From Candidatus Omnitrophota bacterium (GTDB lineage Bacteria; Omnitrophota; Gorgyraeia; JAGLLT01), in contig JAGLLT010000026.1 of the NCBI GenBank assembly GCA_023140385.1, positions 1 to 33,930 of the forward strand: a stretch of DNA of 33,930 nucleotides, in the 5' to 3' direction. A program made the position numbers. Below, in pieces: positions 1-6,000 of this stretch (positions are counted from its first letter, which is position 1; every line of letters starts with the position of its first letter).

Positions 1-3000
1 CGCAATATGAGTTACAATGCACCAATAGAGCTCATATCTCCCTAAAATCTTGACAGAACATAAGCAATATGATATACTTATCGCCAAAAGGATAAGTGAA
101 ATGACGCATTTCGATAAAGACAGCTATTACGTAAAGTATCTGAAAATCTTCTCTTAAACCTCCGCTTTAAAGCGGGGGTTTTTTTATGGAAGCAAAAAGA
201 CGTTAATTTAAACTTCGGGACTCATTAAAGGGGCAGGCAGATGAAAAAAGTTCTTTTTTTAGTTATAGGGGTGATTATTTTGTTTTTGTGTAGTTCTGTT
301 TCAGTAGAAGCGGGCGCTTATAAGGCCGCTGGTATTGGAGCCAAGTCTCTTTCAAGAGGAGGAGGCATTGGGGCGGTAGATGACTACACGGCAATCTTTT
401 GGAATCCCGCCGGCTTAACTCAAGTCGAAGAGAGCCACTTTACCATAGAGCCGCATTATCTTCACCTGAAGCAGGTTGACGGCAACTCGGTGAAGAACTA
501 CGATATTGCTAATTACAGCAATATGCAGGGGGACAGCTTTCTACGGATATACAATACACCGGGTACGGCTGTAGAGCCGGCTCAATTTGATAAAACAAGT
601 GCCATATATAGCAGTATAAGCCCCACTACGAGCTTCGGAGGGTCTTTTGAAATCAAGGGTTTTGATTTTGGCTTAGGCATATATACTCCCGCGGCGCTTA
701 GCACCGACTGGGAATGCTCGACGCGGGATTTAGTTAATAATGCCCTCATAGAAGCCGATTTCTTTTCCGGAATAAAAATGACCGCCTACAACATTTCTGT
801 AGCTAAGGAGATAAATTCTTATTTATCAATAGGAGCCGGCGTAAATTACCTGACAGGTGAAATGGAGGTAGAGGCTGAAAAGAGATATAGCTCTCAAGCG
901 GCGCCCGCGCTGGATTACCGGTTTGACTATAAGGAAGAAGCGGAAGGCGATGGAGTTGAGGGGGTGTTTGGGGTATTATTCAAGCCCCTTTCTAATTTAA
1001 AGATCGGCGGTGTATATCGAAGCGGCGCGGAGATGACCTTAAAAGGAGACTCATATTATAAGCACACCGCTTTAGGGATAGATGAAAGTAGTGATTATAC
1101 CCAGGATTATGATTTTCCTAATAGCTATGGAATAGGTTTGGCTTATGAGCCGGTTTCGGAACTGACCTTGCTGCTTGAGTGGGAGCGGACAGGCTGGGAT
1201 AGAGTAAAGAGAGATATAAATTACGACCTTGTTGGTGGAGCCGCGCTGATAGATGTAGACATAGATTGGGAGTGGAAGGATTCTAATCAGGTGCGTTTGG
1301 GGGCGGAGTACCGGGTTTCTCCTGAATTATCCGCGCGGGGCAGTATAGCCTGGGATGAGTCTCCTTTATCGGATGAAACGGTGAGTATAACCAATGTAGT
1401 TGATATAGATAAAATATACCTGTATTTAGGGTTAGGCTATCAGAGAAATAACTTTCAGTTTAACGCGGGGTATGCCTACGGCTTTGGCGACGATACTATT
1501 GACGGGGTTGATTATGAAATAATACTACATAACGTGATGTTGGGGGGCAGCTATTTCTTTTAAAAGCGGAGGTGACAGCAATGGATGACGAAAGGAAATA
1601 TGGAAGCGGCAGCTTGGAGAAAAGAAGGTTTACGCGCATAGTTAAGACTGTTCCGGTTGAGTTTAAATCCTGTCAGGCAGTGTCAGGGGGAGCGACTGCC
1701 AGAGATGTGAGTGAGGGTGGTTTGTGTATAGAGGCAGAACAGATAGAGCAGGAATCATTGCGGGAGTTACTATCTAAAAAGGCAGAAGTAAGCATAAAGA
1801 TAGATTTGCCGTCTGAATTTGGCGCGGTTGAGGTTGCGGCTCAAATTGCCTGGATAAAAGATAAAGAGGCTTCTGAGGGTAAGTTGTGTTTTGGGGTGAG
1901 ATTTACCGGGATACCCGAAGAATATCAGGGCAAAATTAAATTATATATTGAGCGTCAATCAAAGATAACGAAGTTGGATTTTGTTCCTAGAAAAAAGGAT
2001 AAAAATTTTGATCCTGAATTTGTTGCCCATAGGCGCCAGTGGCTAAGCGAAAAGACAAATACCAGATTTTTTCACACCGGTTATTTTTCTACTCCCAGTG
2101 AGGACATGAAAGGGAATATAGAGAACTTAATTGGTGTGACACAGATTCCTATTGGTGTTGCAGGACCGTTAAAAATAAACGGTCAATATGCCAAAGGAAC
2201 CTTTTATATTCCCCTTGCTACCACCGAAGGTACGCTAGTAGAAACATATCAACGGGGAATGCTTGTAATTACTAAAGCAGGTGGCGCAAATGTGATTGTT
2301 ACTAAGGATGTAATTAATGTTTCACCGGTCTTTATTTTGGAAGATATCTCTAAAATTAAGGGTTTCATTCTTTGGGTTGAAGAAAATTTTGAAAAGATCA
2401 AAGAAAAAGCAGAAAAAACGACAAGATATGGCAAGTTATTAAAAATTACACCTTTGTTCCTAGGAAAAAGAGTTATACTGAACTTTTGCTATACTACGGG
2501 GGACGCCATGGGGCTAAATATGATTAATATAGCCACGGATCGAGCCTGTGAATATATTAGGGAAAATGTAAAAACAGAAGGATTTTATCTGCGTTCTAAT
2601 TTTTCTTCTGATAAGAAAGCCTCGGTTTATAATTTAATTACAGGTTATGGAAAAGAAGTTTTAGTAGAGGTGACGCTTTCTAAAAAAATAGTTAATAGGT
2701 ATTTAAATTCTACACCAGAAGAAATTTACAATTTTTGGTATGTAGGTTTTCTTGGAAGTTATCAGGCAGGAATGATTGGTCTGAATGCTCATTTTGCTAA
2801 TGGTTTGGCTGCTATTTTTATTGCTTGTGGTCAAGATGTAGCTCAGATAATAAATGCTAATGTTGGAATTGTTATGTGTGAGATTACAAAAAATGGCGAT
2901 TTATGTATAAGTGCAAAGTTTCCAAATCTTGTGATTGGTACAGTAGGAGGGGGCACTTCTTTAAAAACTCAACGTGAATGTTTAGAGTCTATAGGATGCT

Positions 3001-6000
3001 ATGGTTCAGATAAAGCAAAAAAATTTGCTGAGATTGTAGCGGCTTCCATTTTAGCTGGAGAGATTTCAATTTGTGCAGCTTTAGCAAGCGGGGTATTTAT
3101 TAAGGCGCACGAAACCAAAAGAAATATTGCCCACACAGAGTAGCAAGAATTAAAAAAAGAGGATAAATGCTTACCTATTTTGTAGCATTATGTTTTATAA
3201 CAGCCTTTTTTAGTTTATTTGCCGGTTCTTTTGTCTATTTAAAAAATAGAAAAGGAGCCCTCAATAGTGCTTTTGCTCTTTTGTGCCTAAGTGCATTTAT
3301 TTGGAGTGGAGGCTTAGGATTTGAGGTAATTTCTTCAAGTCAAAAGATAGGATTTTTCTGGTCAAGATTTCTCCATATGGGAGTAATTTTCATTACTCCT
3401 ACCTATTTACATGTTGTTGTTATTTTAGTGGGGCTTTATGAAAAAAAGAAGAGAATACTCAGCGGGGCATATGTCATTGCCTTTATTCTTTTTTTCTGCA
3501 ACTTTACCAACCTACTTGTTGAGGGCGTAAGTCCTAAATTATACTTTAATTATTATACCGATCCTGGTATGTTATACCCTTTACTGCTTTTGCTCTTTTT
3601 TTCATGTATGGGTTATGGTTTTTATCTGTTGGCCGCGGGATGCAGGAGGTTTTCTGGATTTAGACGCAATCAAATTAAATATTTTTTAATCGCAACACTT
3701 ATGGGGTATGTTGGTGGTACTCCTACCTATCTCCCCGTATCTAATATTTTTATTCACCCTTTTTATATGTGTTTGCTGCCAGTCTACTACTGCGTTCTTG
3801 CGTACTCTATTGTTAAATACCGCTTAATGGATATTAATATTATGTTTACCAAGGGGATTGTTTACATACTTTTGTTATTGTTGTCATCAGCAACATACCT
3901 TGGCCTTGCGTTTAGTGTTGATAAAATATTCTCACAGTATTCGGGGTACAATTCAAGCATGTCACACCTTCTCATTTTTTTGTTATTGATAGCCGGAATT
4001 ATACACGTGACTCCGCAGTTAAAAATTAAAACGGAAAAGGCGGTAGAAAAGGTATTGTTTAAGAATAAATATTTGTATCGTATTGCCTTGCAAAAATTTG
4101 GCAATAGGATTACTTATGACCTTTCTCAGGAAAAGCTTTTAAGTAACACGGTTAGTTTTATATCCAAGGTTATGCAGATACCCTATGTTTCAATTATGGT
4201 GAAAAATGAAATTTATGGCCATTATACTTACGGAGCTTCGGTTGGTTTTGACGATGATGAAATCAAAGGCTTAGAGTTTGCTGAAGACAGCGAATTAGTT
4301 AACTGGCTGTCTGACAATAAAGCGGTTCTGATTAAAGATGAGATGGAGAAAATACTTCCTTTAGAAAAAACACACCTTCTTGGTGAAGATATGGATAGGG
4401 TGAAGGCTTGTTTATGCATACCCTTATATGCCTCGGTTGACGTTATCGGTTTTCTGTGTCTATCTGAACGCGCGGCCAATGAAATATACTCACACATAGA
4501 TATAGGCTTGCTTCAGAGTATAGCCGGTCAAATTTCTCTGGTTATCGCCTATAAGCGCTTAGAGGATCACATGCTTCAGACGGAGAAGTTGGCTTCTTTA
4601 GGCACTTTGGCGGCCGGCCTTGCCCATGAGATAAAAAATCCTCTTTCAAGTATTCAAATTTTTGCTCAACTCTTTCCGCAGAAATACAACGATGAGGAAT
4701 TCAGAAATAAATTTAACAGGGTTGTAGTCCGAGATGTGCTCAGGATATCCAAGTTGATAGATAACGTATTGTCCCTTACTAAATCTAAGCCGGCTGAAGT
4801 TGTTCCTCATGACATCAATGATATAGTTGATGATACCTTGTCGCTGCTAAATAGCGAACTCTTAAAGAACAAAGTCAAGGTTATTAAGTCTTATGGTAAA
4901 CTGCCTCTTGTAAACTGTAACAATGAAGAGCTGAAGCAGGTCTTCCTGAATATTATTATAAACGCTATGCATGCTATGCCCGATGGAGGCACATTAAAAA
5001 TTACTTCTACTTTGGGCCCCCTTGCCACTTCGCGAAGTATAGAAAAAAGGCGTATTTTCGCGAGAATAAAAATTGAGGATAGCGGCTGTGGAATAGAAGA
5101 GAAGGTATTAAATAAACTATTTGACCCGTTTTTTACTACCAGGGCAGAGGGGACCGGTTTGGGCCTGGCGCTGGCTCATCGTATTATCAAGCAGCATCGT
5201 GGTTTTATTGGAGTAGAGTCTAAATTGGGGGAGGGCACGGTATTTTGGATAGACCTTCCGGTTGTCCGAGGTGAAACTTAAGGCGAGAGGGAATATTATG
5301 AACGAACGCATATTGGTAGTTGATGATGAACTTGGAATCAGAGAGTCATTGCAAATGATGTTGAGTGATGAGTATGAAGTCTCTATGGCTGACAGCGGCG
5401 ATGAGTGTCTTAAGGTACTTAAAAAAGACCGCGCGTTTTCTCTATTAATACTGGATGTAAGAATGCCGGGCTTAAGCGGGATAGAGGTTTTAAAGAGGGT
5501 AAAAAAGATGAGCCCTTCTTTGTCGGTGATTATTTTGACGGCAGTAGATACGCATGAGGCGGTGGTTGAGGCTTTAAAGTTTGGGGCAGAGGACTTTATT
5601 GCCAAACCGGTTGATATATATCATATGCGGGAAGTCATAAAAAAAGCTTTATCCAAGCCCAAAGAGGATAAAGCGCGAGTAAAAAAAAAGCCGATTTCAG
5701 TAGATGAGGTTTTGAATGAAAACTTCATGGAAGCCATTCAGGTTTTAACTGAGATAATTGAGGCTAAAGACCCCTACCTTAAAAGACATTCTAAGTGGAC
5801 TACCGAGTATGCTATAGCCATTGCCAGCAAGTTAGGGCTTTCTGAGGAACAAATGGATGTAATAAGGCAAACCTGTTTGCTTCACGATATCGGCAAGGTA
5901 GGGATTAGTGATGTTATTCTGCAGAAAAAAACAAAGCTTGCCCCTGAGCAGTGGGAGGCGCTGAAGAAGCATCCTGTAATTGGCGAAAAAATACTCAAAA

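Follow-up and report, generated by a model that had tools for sequence, protein, structure and literature searches.

A PilZ-fused homologue of class-I HMG-CoA reductase beside a 7TM sensor kinase in an Omnitrophota bacterium, a candidate c-di-GMP-gated thioester reductase

Cellulose synthase BcsA and alginate Alg44 are membrane polysaccharide synthases whose catalysis c-di-GMP switches after translation, through a PilZ domain (motifs RxxxR and DxSxxG) that is either fused to the enzyme complex or one of its parts. In the alpha-hydroxyketone systems CqsA/CqsS and LqsA/LqsS, the synthase gene adjoins that of a multi-pass membrane kinase sensing the hydrophobic product. The terminal domains with which carboxylic acid reductases and NRPS/PKS reduce thioesters display the short-chain dehydrogenase fold, as do the fatty acyl-CoA/ACP reductases. 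Finally, the Rpf/DSF system of Xanthomonas, as described in PMC4504480, comprises the synthase RpfF, the membrane kinase RpfC and the REC-HD-GYP protein RpfG; the phosphorylated REC-HD-GYP protein lowers c-di-GMP, and signal synthesis is in turn subject to feedback from the sensor.

The window analyzed here is a stretch of 33,930 nucleotides from Candidatus Omnitrophota bacterium. It encodes a protein, PilZ-HMGR (P0001), that joins an N-terminal PilZ domain to the catalytic domain of class-I HMG-CoA reductases (Table 1). The window resembles Rpf/DSF as described (PMC4504480) in clustering the gene of a lipid-thioester-modifying enzyme with those of a histidine kinase that spans the membrane several times and of a REC-HD-GYP protein. 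However, the enzyme is an HMGR-type reductase instead of a crotonase, the kinase input is 7TM plus GAF instead of 5TM, and feedback would use PilZ on the enzyme whereas Rpf uses protein-protein contact. The two systems have no sequence relationship, and a signal in the window is hypothetical, which also applies to the comparison with CqsA/CqsS and LqsA/LqsS, where enzyme family and kinase input domain differ. The PilZ motifs are common to BcsA/Alg44 and PilZ-HMGR, but the latter is a soluble oxidoreductase. By analogy with terminal thioester reductases, it is proposed to use NAD(P)H to convert a pantetheine thioester into an aldehyde or alcohol, with an HMGR fold in place of the short-chain dehydrogenase fold. 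We moderately favor the interpretation that PilZ-HMGR reduces an acyl thioester other than that of HMG under gating by c-di-GMP, with wiring from kinase to REC-HD-GYP, c-di-GMP and PilZ, and thus serves as the regulated enzyme of a signalling cassette that has a membrane sensor.

Table 1. Positions of the features of the window, with the evidence for each.
Feature	Position	Strand	Evidence
Terminator-like hairpin 5' of unit	156..181	+	consensus scan only
FadL/TodX-type outer-membrane channel, hydrophobic compounds	241..1563	+	Pfam Toluene_X 3.8e-25
PilZ-HMGR fusion protein (P0001)	1581..3143	+	520 aa ORF, ATG start
PilZ domain, residues 13-124	1617..1952	+	PF07238, E 7.2e-13, 49.2 bits vs cut-off 22.5
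RxxxR motif (R15-R-F-T-R19)	1623..1637	+	protein sequence/alignment
DxSxxG motif (D42-V-S-E-G-G47)	1704..1721	+	protein sequence/alignment
Class-I HMG-CoA_red catalytic domain, residues 148-512	2022..3116	+	Pfam E 7.4e-114
HisKA_7TM-GAF-HisKA-HATPase sensor histidine kinase	3167..5281	+	Pfam; H-box present
Weaker 6-pair terminator-like match	3464-3483	+	consensus scan only
REC-HD-GYP response regulator	5262..6275	+	Pfam Response_reg 2.8e-27, HD_5 2.7e-35
ABC transporter, three genes	6335..9386	+	Pfam
ABC transporter ATPase	6335-7060	+	Pfam
ABC-2 permease	7060-7770	+	Pfam
ABC_transp_aux auxiliary protein	7761-9386	+	Pfam
Next long-stem terminator-like hairpin, 11-pair	10454..10478	+	consensus scan only

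The fusion described in the genome-wide survey's note is real, and so are its neighbors, a GAF histidine kinase and a REC-HD-GYP protein; the 7TM part of the kinase is an addition to that description. An assembly artefact can be dismissed, since the fusion was seen in 34 distinct proteins and a contig from a further run, belonging to the same study as the possible source run, spans 1926-3955 with zero differences. There is also an in-frame GTG at 1572, and translation of the REC-HD-GYP gene likely starts at the ATG at 5298. With its motifs intact (HD at residue 208, HHERYDGSGYP at 261-271), the REC-HD-GYP protein is a putative c-di-GMP phosphodiesterase. The consensus scan detected no terminator-like hairpin of more than six stem pairs on the forward strand from 181 to 10454. 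The FadL/TodX gene is the putative first gene of the unit containing PilZ-HMGR; the ABC transporter genes are possibly co-transcribed with this unit, and their role in the cassette is putative. The genome itself (G000) is 92.69% complete.

The closest solved relative is an archaeal HMG-CoA reductase (6hr7, 1.2e-100). The TTEG, DAMG, SSDKK, GQD and C-terminal AH motifs of the two proteins align, and the tetrad reported earlier is complete (E216, K345, D419, H510). Fold family, TTEG/DAMG/DKK/GQD motifs, tetrad and C-terminal His helix are common to PilZ-HMGR, 6hr7 and human HMGCR, the PilZ domain being the addition. The alignment shows retention of the Glu/Lys/Asp/His machinery that takes a pantetheine thioester to a primary alcohol in an NAD(P)H-dependent four-electron reduction. 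These features, together with the Pfam score, are those expected of a genuine HMG-CoA reductase, whose interconversion of HMG-CoA and mevalonate would be switched by c-di-GMP, mevalonate being made for unspecified use or, if scavenged, oxidised. Equivalents of Asp690, Lys691, Lys692 and Asn755 are also kept, Arg338, which occupies the Ser684 position, could bind the carboxylate instead, and orphan HMG-CoA reductases exist elsewhere, such as, going by a cited title, the oxidative enzyme of Burkholderia cenocepacia.

The acyl pocket, however, is remodelled (V247, R338, V388, I497, F506). A blind scan was made for columns conserved to 85% or more across 15 canonical enzymes and kept by at most 10% of the 58 members of the clade to which PilZ-HMGR belongs. 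Only 11 of the approximately 365 columns of the catalytic domain separated the two groups, while 46 were conserved in both alike. The separating columns include Arg590 (Val in PilZ-HMGR), Ser684 (Arg), Lys735 (Val), Leu853 (Ile) and Leu862, also replaced. PMC9500038 describes Arg590, Ser684, Lys735 and Leu853 as HMG/statin contacts, and PMC3875450 also informed these contact roles. Arg590, Ser684 and Lys735 are replaced throughout the clade; at the level of the alignment, the pocket for the HMG distal carboxylate has been rebuilt. Moreover, PilZ-HMGR scores 378.2 bits against the NCBIfam equivalog TIGR00533, below its cut-off of 441.8.

Genomic context also argues against mevalonate. As the genome-wide survey's note had stated, the enzyme is an orphan: in its own genome, HMG_CoA_synt_N gave zero real matches and GHMP_kinases_N none, and a true thiolase was not found, Thiolase_N matching only FabF and FabH. 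No HMG-CoA lyase was present among the three HMGL-like proteins scanned out of five. Across the phylum (401 genomes sampled), HMG-CoA synthase scored above cut-off in none of the 20 HMGR-bearing genomes, and mevalonate-pathway genes never adjoin clade members in the loci examined. The MEP genes dxs, ispD, ispF and ispH were found in the genome, and dxr, ispG and ispE again were not, GHMP kinases, to which ispE belongs, being wholly absent. All 11 relatives having both, including a genome of the same genus, carry dxr and ispG on a single contig, within 2-5 kb of each other; thus, the missing genes most simply reflect one assembly gap, and the MEP pathway is probably complete in the lineage. The sub-cut-off score, the replaced contacts, the lack of HMG-CoA synthase and the neighboring genes described below (ketoacyl synthase, ACP and 7TM kinases) therefore weaken the mevalonate reading. 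We consider a genuine HMG-CoA reductase unlikely, and mevalonate is probably not the product. Of the earlier interpretation, the fusion, the motifs, the tetrad, the orphan status and the recurrence of such fusions thus stand; HMG-CoA/mevalonate conversion as the reaction under c-di-GMP control is not supported.

The class-I HMG-CoA reductase homologues among which PilZ-HMGR groups form a non-canonical clade. The best 120 homologues, from a search with the whole protein that is biased towards PilZ-fused matches, include 23 with PilZ, 13 with REC and 5 with PF13279, exactly as counted before. In a FastTree phylogeny of 225 catalytic domains, with the root assumed on a 17-leaf group keeping Arg590/Ser684/Lys735, PilZ-HMGR falls apart from the canonical enzymes in a clade of 58 leaves (support 0.952) containing all the PilZ, REC, 4HBT and AfsA-hotdog fusions and all the 7TM-kinase contexts seen. 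PilZ (34 leaves, at least 15 changes) and REC fusions (21 leaves, 12 changes) are interleaved on the tree. The sister clade (28 leaves, support 1.0) is located in ACP-KS-KS cassettes. Other branches carry ACP-HMGR and AMP-binding-ACP-HMGR (adenylation-ACP) fusions, the latter mirroring the A-T-R order of terminal-reductase systems, which indicates use of the HMGR fold as a carrier-thioester reductase. Within the order, HMGR is present in one of eight genomes, in agreement with the survey, and was not found in the other seven; HisKA_7TM was not found in the four of these seven that were searched. In the literature searched, the fusion was not found, and no paper paired 'PilZ domain' with 'hydroxymethylglutaryl'.

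The genome contains exactly one HMGR and one HisKA_7TM protein, encoded by adjoining genes; tblastn of the 7TM region against this genome gave no second match. A 7TM(-GAF) histidine kinase gene lies directly 3' of HMGR in 13 of 21 phylum loci, corresponding to 13 of the 15 loci of the clade, and is next in five of the eight metagenome clade loci with a downstream gene. The order FadL, PilZ-enzyme, 7TM kinase recurs in L153, and HD-GYP proteins occur in the cassettes of the window, L046 and L110. In L045, L051, L058, L059, L063, L076 and L110, the reductase has genes for ketoacyl synthase, ACP or both as neighbors, some of them fused to regulatory domains (PilZ-KAS in L076; REC-KAS and REC-4HBT in L051). 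The window is without a dedicated ketoacyl synthase or ACP, and the only such proteins of the genome are FabF/AcpP and a second, unrelated ACP. As a control, we inspected 20 HisKA_7TM kinases from genomes without HMGR, taken non-randomly from the top of the score list. Upstream of 15 lay another Pfam-recognisable enzyme or regulatory protein, including REC-aldehyde dehydrogenase, a PilZ-methyltransferase-like protein, aminotransferases, amine oxidases and methyltransferases; FadL lay two genes 5' of the kinase in three. One control locus (L157) encodes AMP-binding, Aminotran_1_2, 7TM kinase and REC proteins, its enzyme slot being filled by a CqsA-type enzyme family. HisKA_7TM kinases occur in 299 of the 401 phylum genomes with many different neighbors, so adjacency shows coupling, not the identity of the sensed ligand.

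Some neighborhoods suggest a maker of structural or storage lipids (fatty alcohol or diol, wax esters or envelope lipids), for which kinase and c-di-GMP would only tune envelope remodelling, without a signal molecule. A WS/DGAT wax-ester synthase adjoins related homologues in L071, L103 and L111, LPG_synthase_C (L044) and PgpA with UbiA (L050) lie near others, and FadL and an ABC-2 transporter flank PilZ-HMGR itself. However, only L071 of the wax-synthase loci falls within the clade, and the repeated pairing with sensor kinases and the regulatory domains on single enzymes are more typical of signalling. Neither point is decisive, and we regard such a role as possible but rather improbable.

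For the regulatory half of the favored c-di-GMP-gated reductase, both PilZ motifs are intact, as first reported, and 22 residues apart. In the AlphaFold2 model (mean pLDDT 82.6, pTM 0.72), the domain is predicted to form a beta-barrel (strands 24-110) followed by a helix (113-130), with RxxxR in an N-terminal arm (residues 1-16) of low confidence. This arm could hint at a PilZ that does not bind c-di-GMP and is a mere adaptor or dimerisation module, the enzyme being regulated otherwise. Motif loss among the 23 PilZ-fused homologues points the same way: RxxxR is aligned in 16, replaced by RxxxH in three, absent in two and misaligned in two, and (D/N)xSxxG is kept in 17 and missing in six. Yet besides the intact motifs, the second gene downstream encodes an HD-GYP protein, and the genome encodes seven GGDEF proteins and at least five further HD-GYP proteins, and so appears equipped to make and break c-di-GMP. 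A non-binding PilZ is thus very doubtful.

For the c-di-GMP-gated reductase, HMG-CoA would not be the substrate; a 3-hydroxy- or 3-oxo-acyl-CoA or -ACP supplied by fatty-acid-type synthesis would be likelier, with a lipid alcohol or diol as product. The 7TM-GAF kinase would phosphorylate the REC-HD-GYP protein, which would then set local c-di-GMP; by sensing it, the PilZ domain would turn the reductase on or off. Sister loci encode a reductase that carries a receiver rather than PilZ, which could place the enzyme under direct control of the kinase; relaying through c-di-GMP would then replace direct phosphotransfer. The product may be either a signal sensed by the kinase itself or an envelope or storage lipid. 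Gene order shows a conserved cassette running from enzyme to 7TM-GAF histidine kinase to receiver, in which the enzyme is the variable component, or 'enzyme arm'.

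The fusion gene studied here (see the table) joins a PilZ domain to an HMG-CoA-reductase-type domain. A PilZ domain with intact c-di-GMP motifs, as described in the genome-wide survey's note, was recovered well above the Pfam cut-off. For the catalytic half, the best solved relative is the archaeal class I HMG-CoA reductase (HMGR) 6hr7 (1.2e-100); in alignments to 6hr7 and to the human enzyme, E216, K345, D419 and H510 correspond to the human catalytic residues Glu559, Lys691, Asp767 and His866. An AlphaFold2 model built from 23 fused homologues (mean pLDDT 82.6) consists of a beta-barrel (residues 24-110), a helix (113-130), a short linker and the reductase. 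Confidence was low in the N-terminal arm (1-16) and in the loop 339-352; since this loop goes with R338 and K345, the model defines the domain limits and not the acyl pocket. An assembly or frameshift artefact was rejected as the origin of the fusion; the contigs of run X4, used as an assembly check, leave positions 1542-1925 uncovered.

Features of the fusion protein, its surroundings and other loci mentioned in the text. Positions are nucleotides of the window unless a residue range or another contig is named.
Feature	Position	Strand	Remarks
Terminator-like hairpin	156-181	+	more than 6 stem pairs
FadL/TodX outer-membrane protein	241-1563
PilZ-HMGR open reading frame	1581-3143	+	520 codons, ATG start; in-frame GTG at 1572
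RxxxR motif RRFTR	residues 15-19 (R15-R19)
PilZ domain (PF07238)	residues 13-124		Pfam, 49.2 bits against a cut-off of 22.5
(D/N)xSxxG motif DVSEGG	residues 42-47 (D42-G47)
HMG-CoA_red domain (PF00368)	residues 148-512		Pfam, E = 7.4e-114
HisKA_7TM-GAF-HisKA-HATPase kinase	3167-5281
Hairpin match	3464-3483		6 stem pairs
REC-HD-GYP protein	5262-6275		HD and HHERYDGSGYP intact
ABC-2 transporter	6335-9386
Terminator-like hairpin	10454-10478	+	more than 6 stem pairs
Sua5/YciO/YrdC-phosphatase fusion	23346-24425
Two-partner-secretion (TPS) domain frame	33495-33929		truncated by contig end
Class II HMGR locus L048	3108-9228 of contig G023:C3
Class II HMGR locus L049	6677-12862 of contig G328:C23
Second ACP-like gene and neighbours (L141)	6292-9347 of own-genome contig C30

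Such fusions recur among homologues. The counts of the note (23 with PilZ, 13 with a receiver and 5 with PF13279 among the best 120 homologues) were reproduced from a list that is biased by the PilZ domain of the query. A search with the catalytic domain only, against representatives at 50% identity, is free of this bias. Among the 34 representatives of the query's clade, 16 were fused to PilZ, two to a receiver and two to a hotdog domain (4HBT_2 and AfsA); four carried an N-terminal extension of 140-185 residues with no domain assigned, and ten were too short for an additional domain. Conservation of the PilZ motifs in fused members, also noted in the survey, held: RxxxR aligned in 16 of 23 and (D/N)xSxxG in 17 of 23. 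On a clade tree of 173 rows, PilZ (34 leaves) requires at least 15 changes, against at least 25 for shuffled labels, and the receiver (21 leaves) at least 12 against at least 17. These counts, which are inflated by tree error and mis-called starts, indicate that both input domains were repeatedly gained, lost or exchanged at one N-terminal position. No PilZ-HMGR fusion, judged by N-terminal length and Pfam, was found among the 80 metagenome loci of an alignment scan, and a scan of genome contigs using this one protein as query gave a single locus, in which a marine metagenome-assembled genome encodes a 43%-identical HMGR. The genome itself encodes proteins for both synthesis and breakdown of c-di-GMP, with seven GGDEF proteins and HD-GYP homologues on five contigs in addition to the neighbour of the fusion gene.

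The genome assembly (1.495 Mb, 57 contigs, 92.69% complete, 0.16% contamination) contains one HMGR gene and, as the note had claimed, no other mevalonate-pathway gene: HMG-CoA synthase, GHMP kinase and a true thiolase are absent. Indeed, HMG_CoA_synt_N gave a single spurious 17-bit match within a secretion ATPase, GHMP_kinases_N gave nothing and Thiolase_N matched FabF and FabH only, in a partner search that left aside IPK, IDI and prenyl synthases. HMG-CoA lyase was not detected in the three of five HMGL-like proteins scanned with NCBIfam; the two outside that scan (506 and 539 aa) are of LeuA/CimA type. As the note had stated, the genome has MEP genes but not dxr, ispG and ispE: dxs, ispD, ispF and ispH were found, and the missing ispE follows from the lack of any GHMP kinase. 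Eleven of 12 relatives, among them a genome of the same genus, have both dxr and ispG, separated by 2-5 kb of a single contig. As the two genes are neighbours in all 11 relatives that have both, their joint absence is most simply explained by one assembly gap, probably an unassembled piece. For the same reason, and because no downstream mevalonate gene exists, rescue of a broken MEP pathway by the HMGR was ruled out. Within the order, HMGR is confined to this genome as stated in the note (none of the seven others has it). Across the phylum it occurs in 20 of 401 sampled genomes, and no HMG-CoA synthase scored above cut-off in any of these 20. Thus, the HMGR-type enzyme is an orphan across the phylum and not only in this genome.

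The query reached 378.2 bits with the NCBIfam equivalog TIGR00533, under its cut-off of 441.8. A FastTree phylogeny was computed from 225 catalytic domains (50%-identity representatives, 15 class I genes of the phylum and 61 metagenome loci, excluding fragments shorter than 330 residues and two mis-called frames). It was rooted on a group of 17 leaves, 15 of which keep Arg590, Ser684 and Lys735 (human HMGCR numbering), as do the enzymes of humans, plants and archaea. Sequences whose residue at the Arg590 position is hydrophobic all fell into one group of 96 (support 0.99), inside which the query belongs to a clade of 58 (support 0.952). The same group holds a 28-leaf clade (support 1.0) of enzymes from cassettes with an ACP, a ketosynthase, a second ketosynthase and a CrtI-like oxidase.

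Columns were then scanned blindly for residues that at least 85% of the 15 canonical sequences share but no more than 10% of the 58 clade members retain. Eleven of about 365 columns qualified (query positions 246-248, 316, 338, 339, 342, 356, 388, 497 and 506), while 46 columns were equally conserved in both sets. In the query, Arg590 is replaced by Val247, Ser684 by Arg338, Lys735 by Val388, Leu853 by Ile497 and Leu862 by Phe, residue 506 being among the scan positions. Each of Arg590, Ser684, Lys735 and Leu853 is invariant (100%) among the 15 canonical sequences, and at most 10% of the clade retain it. In the literature, Arg590, Ser684, Asp690, Lys691, Lys692 and Asn755 are given as polar contacts of the HMG moiety, Lys735 as forming a salt bridge with the terminal carboxylate of this moiety, and Leu853 as touching it hydrophobically (PMC9500038); Leu862 is also listed (PMC3875450). 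A first pass, in which no retrieved sequence had Lys at position 735, had set this position aside as non-diagnostic; this was overturned by the added canonical representatives, which have it. Thus, the catalytic chemistry is retained and the distal acyl pocket rebuilt. At the level of sequence this argues for a changed substrate of PilZ-HMGR, short of proof, and anion binding by the new Arg338 is still conceivable.

Thus, the fold and the catalytic tetrad agree with the complete class I HMGR of the note, but the TIGR00533 score, the HMG-contact residues and the pathway partners do not. With three of these five features in disagreement, the protein is filed as an HMGR-family enzyme and not as an HMG-CoA reductase, and the proposed c-di-GMP control of HMG-CoA/mevalonate conversion is weakened by the same three points.

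The genomic context was compared over 21 loci from the 20 HMGR-bearing phylum genomes. Two of them (L048 and L049) are class II enzymes inside polysaccharide clusters, three (L041, L042 and L044) keep Arg590, and one (L060) is an HMGR fragment adjoining a transposase; the remaining 15 are members of the query's clade, either intact or as broken copies. In 13 of these 15 loci the next same-strand downstream gene encodes a HisKA_7TM protein, usually 7TM-GAF-HisKA-HATPase (window, L043, L045, L046, L047, L050, L052-L057 and the broken L058). In L059 it is the fourth gene downstream, and L051 has none. Receiver-HMGR fusions account for six of seven loci from two phylum families (L051-L054, L056 and L057). 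The pairing was also seen in five of eight metagenome clade loci with a downstream gene (L061, L062, L063, L076 and L079); L110 has HMGR followed by a ketoacyl synthase (KAS) and a 7TM-HD-GYP protein, and the pairing is missing from L071 and L074. Genes for ketoacyl synthase and/or ACP occur in L045, L051, L058, L059, L063, L076 and L110. The PilZ domain of L076 sits on the ketoacyl synthase, and in L051 receivers are found on the reductase, a 4HBT thioesterase and the ketoacyl synthase. HD-GYP proteins lie within the cassette in the window, L046 and L110. The HMGRs of L058 (genome G359) and L059 (G023:C28) are split into two or three frames next to intact ACP, KAS and 7TM genes, which may reflect cassette decay or sequencing error. 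A second ACP gene of our genome was discarded as a cassette partner, as it lies in an RND-efflux/lipid cluster with no cassette link; this gene (L141), downstream of a TetR/RND efflux set, is followed by a STAS-MGDG-synthase-like glycosyltransferase fusion and a lipid-A-acyltransferase-like gene.

In the window, the kinase and the REC-HD-GYP protein that the survey had placed beside the fusion gene lie downstream of it, with motifs intact. A consensus scan of the + strand gave terminator-like hairpins whose stems exceed 6 pairs only at the two tabulated sites, so a single transcription unit is possible; a 6-pair match lies between them. Elsewhere in the window, one gene combines a Sua5/YciO/YrdC domain with a low-molecular-weight phosphotyrosine phosphatase domain (among canonical-type HMGRs, P0239 is a Sua5-HMGR fusion), and an open frame with a TPS domain runs into the contig end.

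Homologues appear in several other settings, and mevalonate-pathway neighbours were found in no locus of any group among the genes scanned, including 36 Arg590-keeping metagenome loci. The HMGR domain follows an ACP in P0140 and P0150, and is also fused to AMP-binding and ACP domains (P0142, P0147, P0182 and P0259), to AMP-binding domains with no ACP match at threshold (P0149, P0166, P0172, P0188 and P0201), and to EcKL/APH-type kinases, an acyl-CoA-binding protein or DUF3419. The fold has clearly been recruited for reducing carrier-bound thioesters. The AMP-binding-(ACP)-HMGR proteins, some with a C-terminal EcKL/APH-type kinase, resemble carboxylic acid reductases in layout, the place of the reductase domain being taken by an HMGR fold. 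A cassette conserved in L066, L067, L070, L073, L075, L077, L081, L084, L087, L093 and L097 consists of ACP, ketosynthase, chain-length-factor-like second ketosynthase, HMGR homologue and CrtI-like amine oxidase, in several of these loci together with FG-GAP/UnbV_ASPIC proteins. It resembles a type-II-PKS-like pathway in which an HMGR-type enzyme would carry out release or tailoring. Moreover, a wax-ester synthase (WS/DGAT) adjoins orphan class I homologues in L071, L103 and L111, which hints at an alcohol-forming role of these homologues.

Arg590-keeping homologues are linked or fused to DUF3419 (L041, L042, L112 and L135; P0168 and P0213). L041 and L042 combine DUF3419 and AMP-binding genes with a protein of about 460 aa, and L041 adds a BcrAD/DUF2229/HGD-D activase; the HMGR of L044 is accompanied by an LPG_synthase_C gene. 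In the class II loci L048 and L049, a CDP-alcohol phosphatidyltransferase, the HMGR and a GHMP kinase are followed by a MobA-like nucleotidyltransferase and by an ATP-grasp protein paired with a CoA ligase, similar to succinyl-CoA synthetase. The set resembles a pathway that would make a nucleotide-activated, mevalonate-like hydroxy-acid phosphate for decorating a glycan.

HisKA_7TM proteins are far commoner than HMGR, occurring in 299 of 401 phylum genomes. Twenty HisKA_7TM kinases from genomes lacking HMGR, taken non-randomly from the top of the score list, served as a control, with two genes upstream and one downstream of each kinase annotated (L142-L161). The same-strand gene directly upstream encoded a methyltransferase in four loci (one of ICMT type counted), an amine oxidase in three, and an aldehyde dehydrogenase in two, one of them receiver-fused (L145). 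An aminotransferase was found in two, that of L157 preceded by an AMP-binding gene in a CqsA-like arrangement. A recurrent NAD-binding family was present in L142 and, by blastp, in L159 and L161; an HpaB-like protein and a B12-radical-SAM protein occurred once each, another 7TM kinase twice and a secretion ATPase once. The upstream gene of L153 encodes a PilZ fusion with a SAM-methyltransferase-like C-terminal part, and this locus shares the window's order of FadL, PilZ-enzyme and 7TM kinase; FadL lies two genes upstream of the kinase in 3 of 20 control loci. A stand-alone receiver directly follows the kinase in 11 of 20. In this phylum, a variable enzyme, a 7TM-GAF kinase and a receiver regularly succeed one another. 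Given these varied upstream enzymes, the window cassette is one member of a modular family, made up thus of a variable small-molecule or lipid tailoring enzyme, a 7TM-GAF kinase and a receiver.

Our genome has exactly one HisKA_7TM protein, adjoining the HMGR, and none was found in the four sampled of the seven other genomes of the order. This fits acquisition of the two genes as one unit, to which the low G+C of positions 2001-4000 (35.3%, compared with about 41% genome-wide) adds no more than a weak hint; as a signal of horizontal transfer by itself it was judged too weak to claim.

From this organization, two modes of wiring can be proposed. In receiver-fused forms, the kinase could phosphorylate the reductase itself. 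In the window, its likely partner would be the REC-HD-GYP protein, whose activity would set the c-di-GMP level read by PilZ. Scores of the window receiver against HMGR-fused and cassette receivers (79 bits for the best cassette receiver) and against own-genome paralogues (75 bits for the best) are too close to mark it as the orthologue of the fused ones. All statements on substrate, product, c-di-GMP binding and phosphotransfer are inferences, and the kinase may sense the product of the enzyme, as gene order hints. A possible but rather improbable extension is that PilZ-HMGR makes a new lipid-alcohol or diol autoinducer, sensed by the 7TM-GAF kinase and fed back through REC-HD-GYP, c-di-GMP and PilZ, in a phylum-wide, combinatorial family of cell-cell signalling cassettes. 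The enzyme slot would then be occupied across the phylum by an HMGR-like reductase, an aldehyde dehydrogenase, an aminotransferase, a methyltransferase, a desaturase-like oxidase or a ketoacyl synthase.

By sequence, the closest known system is class I HMGR itself; by design, it is the Rpf/DSF circuit. PilZ-gated synthases (BcsA and Alg44), CqsA/CqsS-type pairs and SDR-type thioester reductases are further analogues. According to PMC4504480, the Rpf/DSF circuit pairs a lipid-thioester-modifying synthase with a polytopic kinase sensing the lipid signal; the phosphorylated REC-HD-GYP protein degrades c-di-GMP, and the sensor also restrains synthesis. The window shares the clustered membrane histidine kinase and REC-HD-GYP protein, but its enzyme is of HMGR type and the unit lacks a crotonase such as RpfF. 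Since the protein families differ, the resemblance is one of mechanism only.

Our literature search, with subscription journals mostly outside its scope, found neither PilZ-HMGR fusions nor HMGR-like thioester reductases nor HMGR/7TM-kinase pairs described in any paper, and no paper combining 'PilZ domain' with 'hydroxymethylglutaryl' or 'HMG-CoA reductase-like' with 'bacteria'. HMGR is among the best-studied enzymes and is near-automatically taken as a marker of the mevalonate pathway. Altogether, the data point to a large bacterial radiation of class I homologues with other jobs, all annotated as HMG-CoA reductase: signalling-linked forms fused to PilZ or a receiver, forms within ACP-KS cassettes, and forms fused to adenylation-ACP modules or kinases. 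This is relevant to both the c-di-GMP and the isoprenoid-enzyme fields. If gated by c-di-GMP, PilZ-HMGR would join the few enzymes directly switched by this messenger, as a soluble redox enzyme acting in lipid metabolism. The swap between PilZ and receiver is a natural experiment on the ways in which a second-messenger relay can take the place of direct phosphotransfer, and the cassette family may offer an entry to cell-cell signalling in an uncultured phylum of small genomes.
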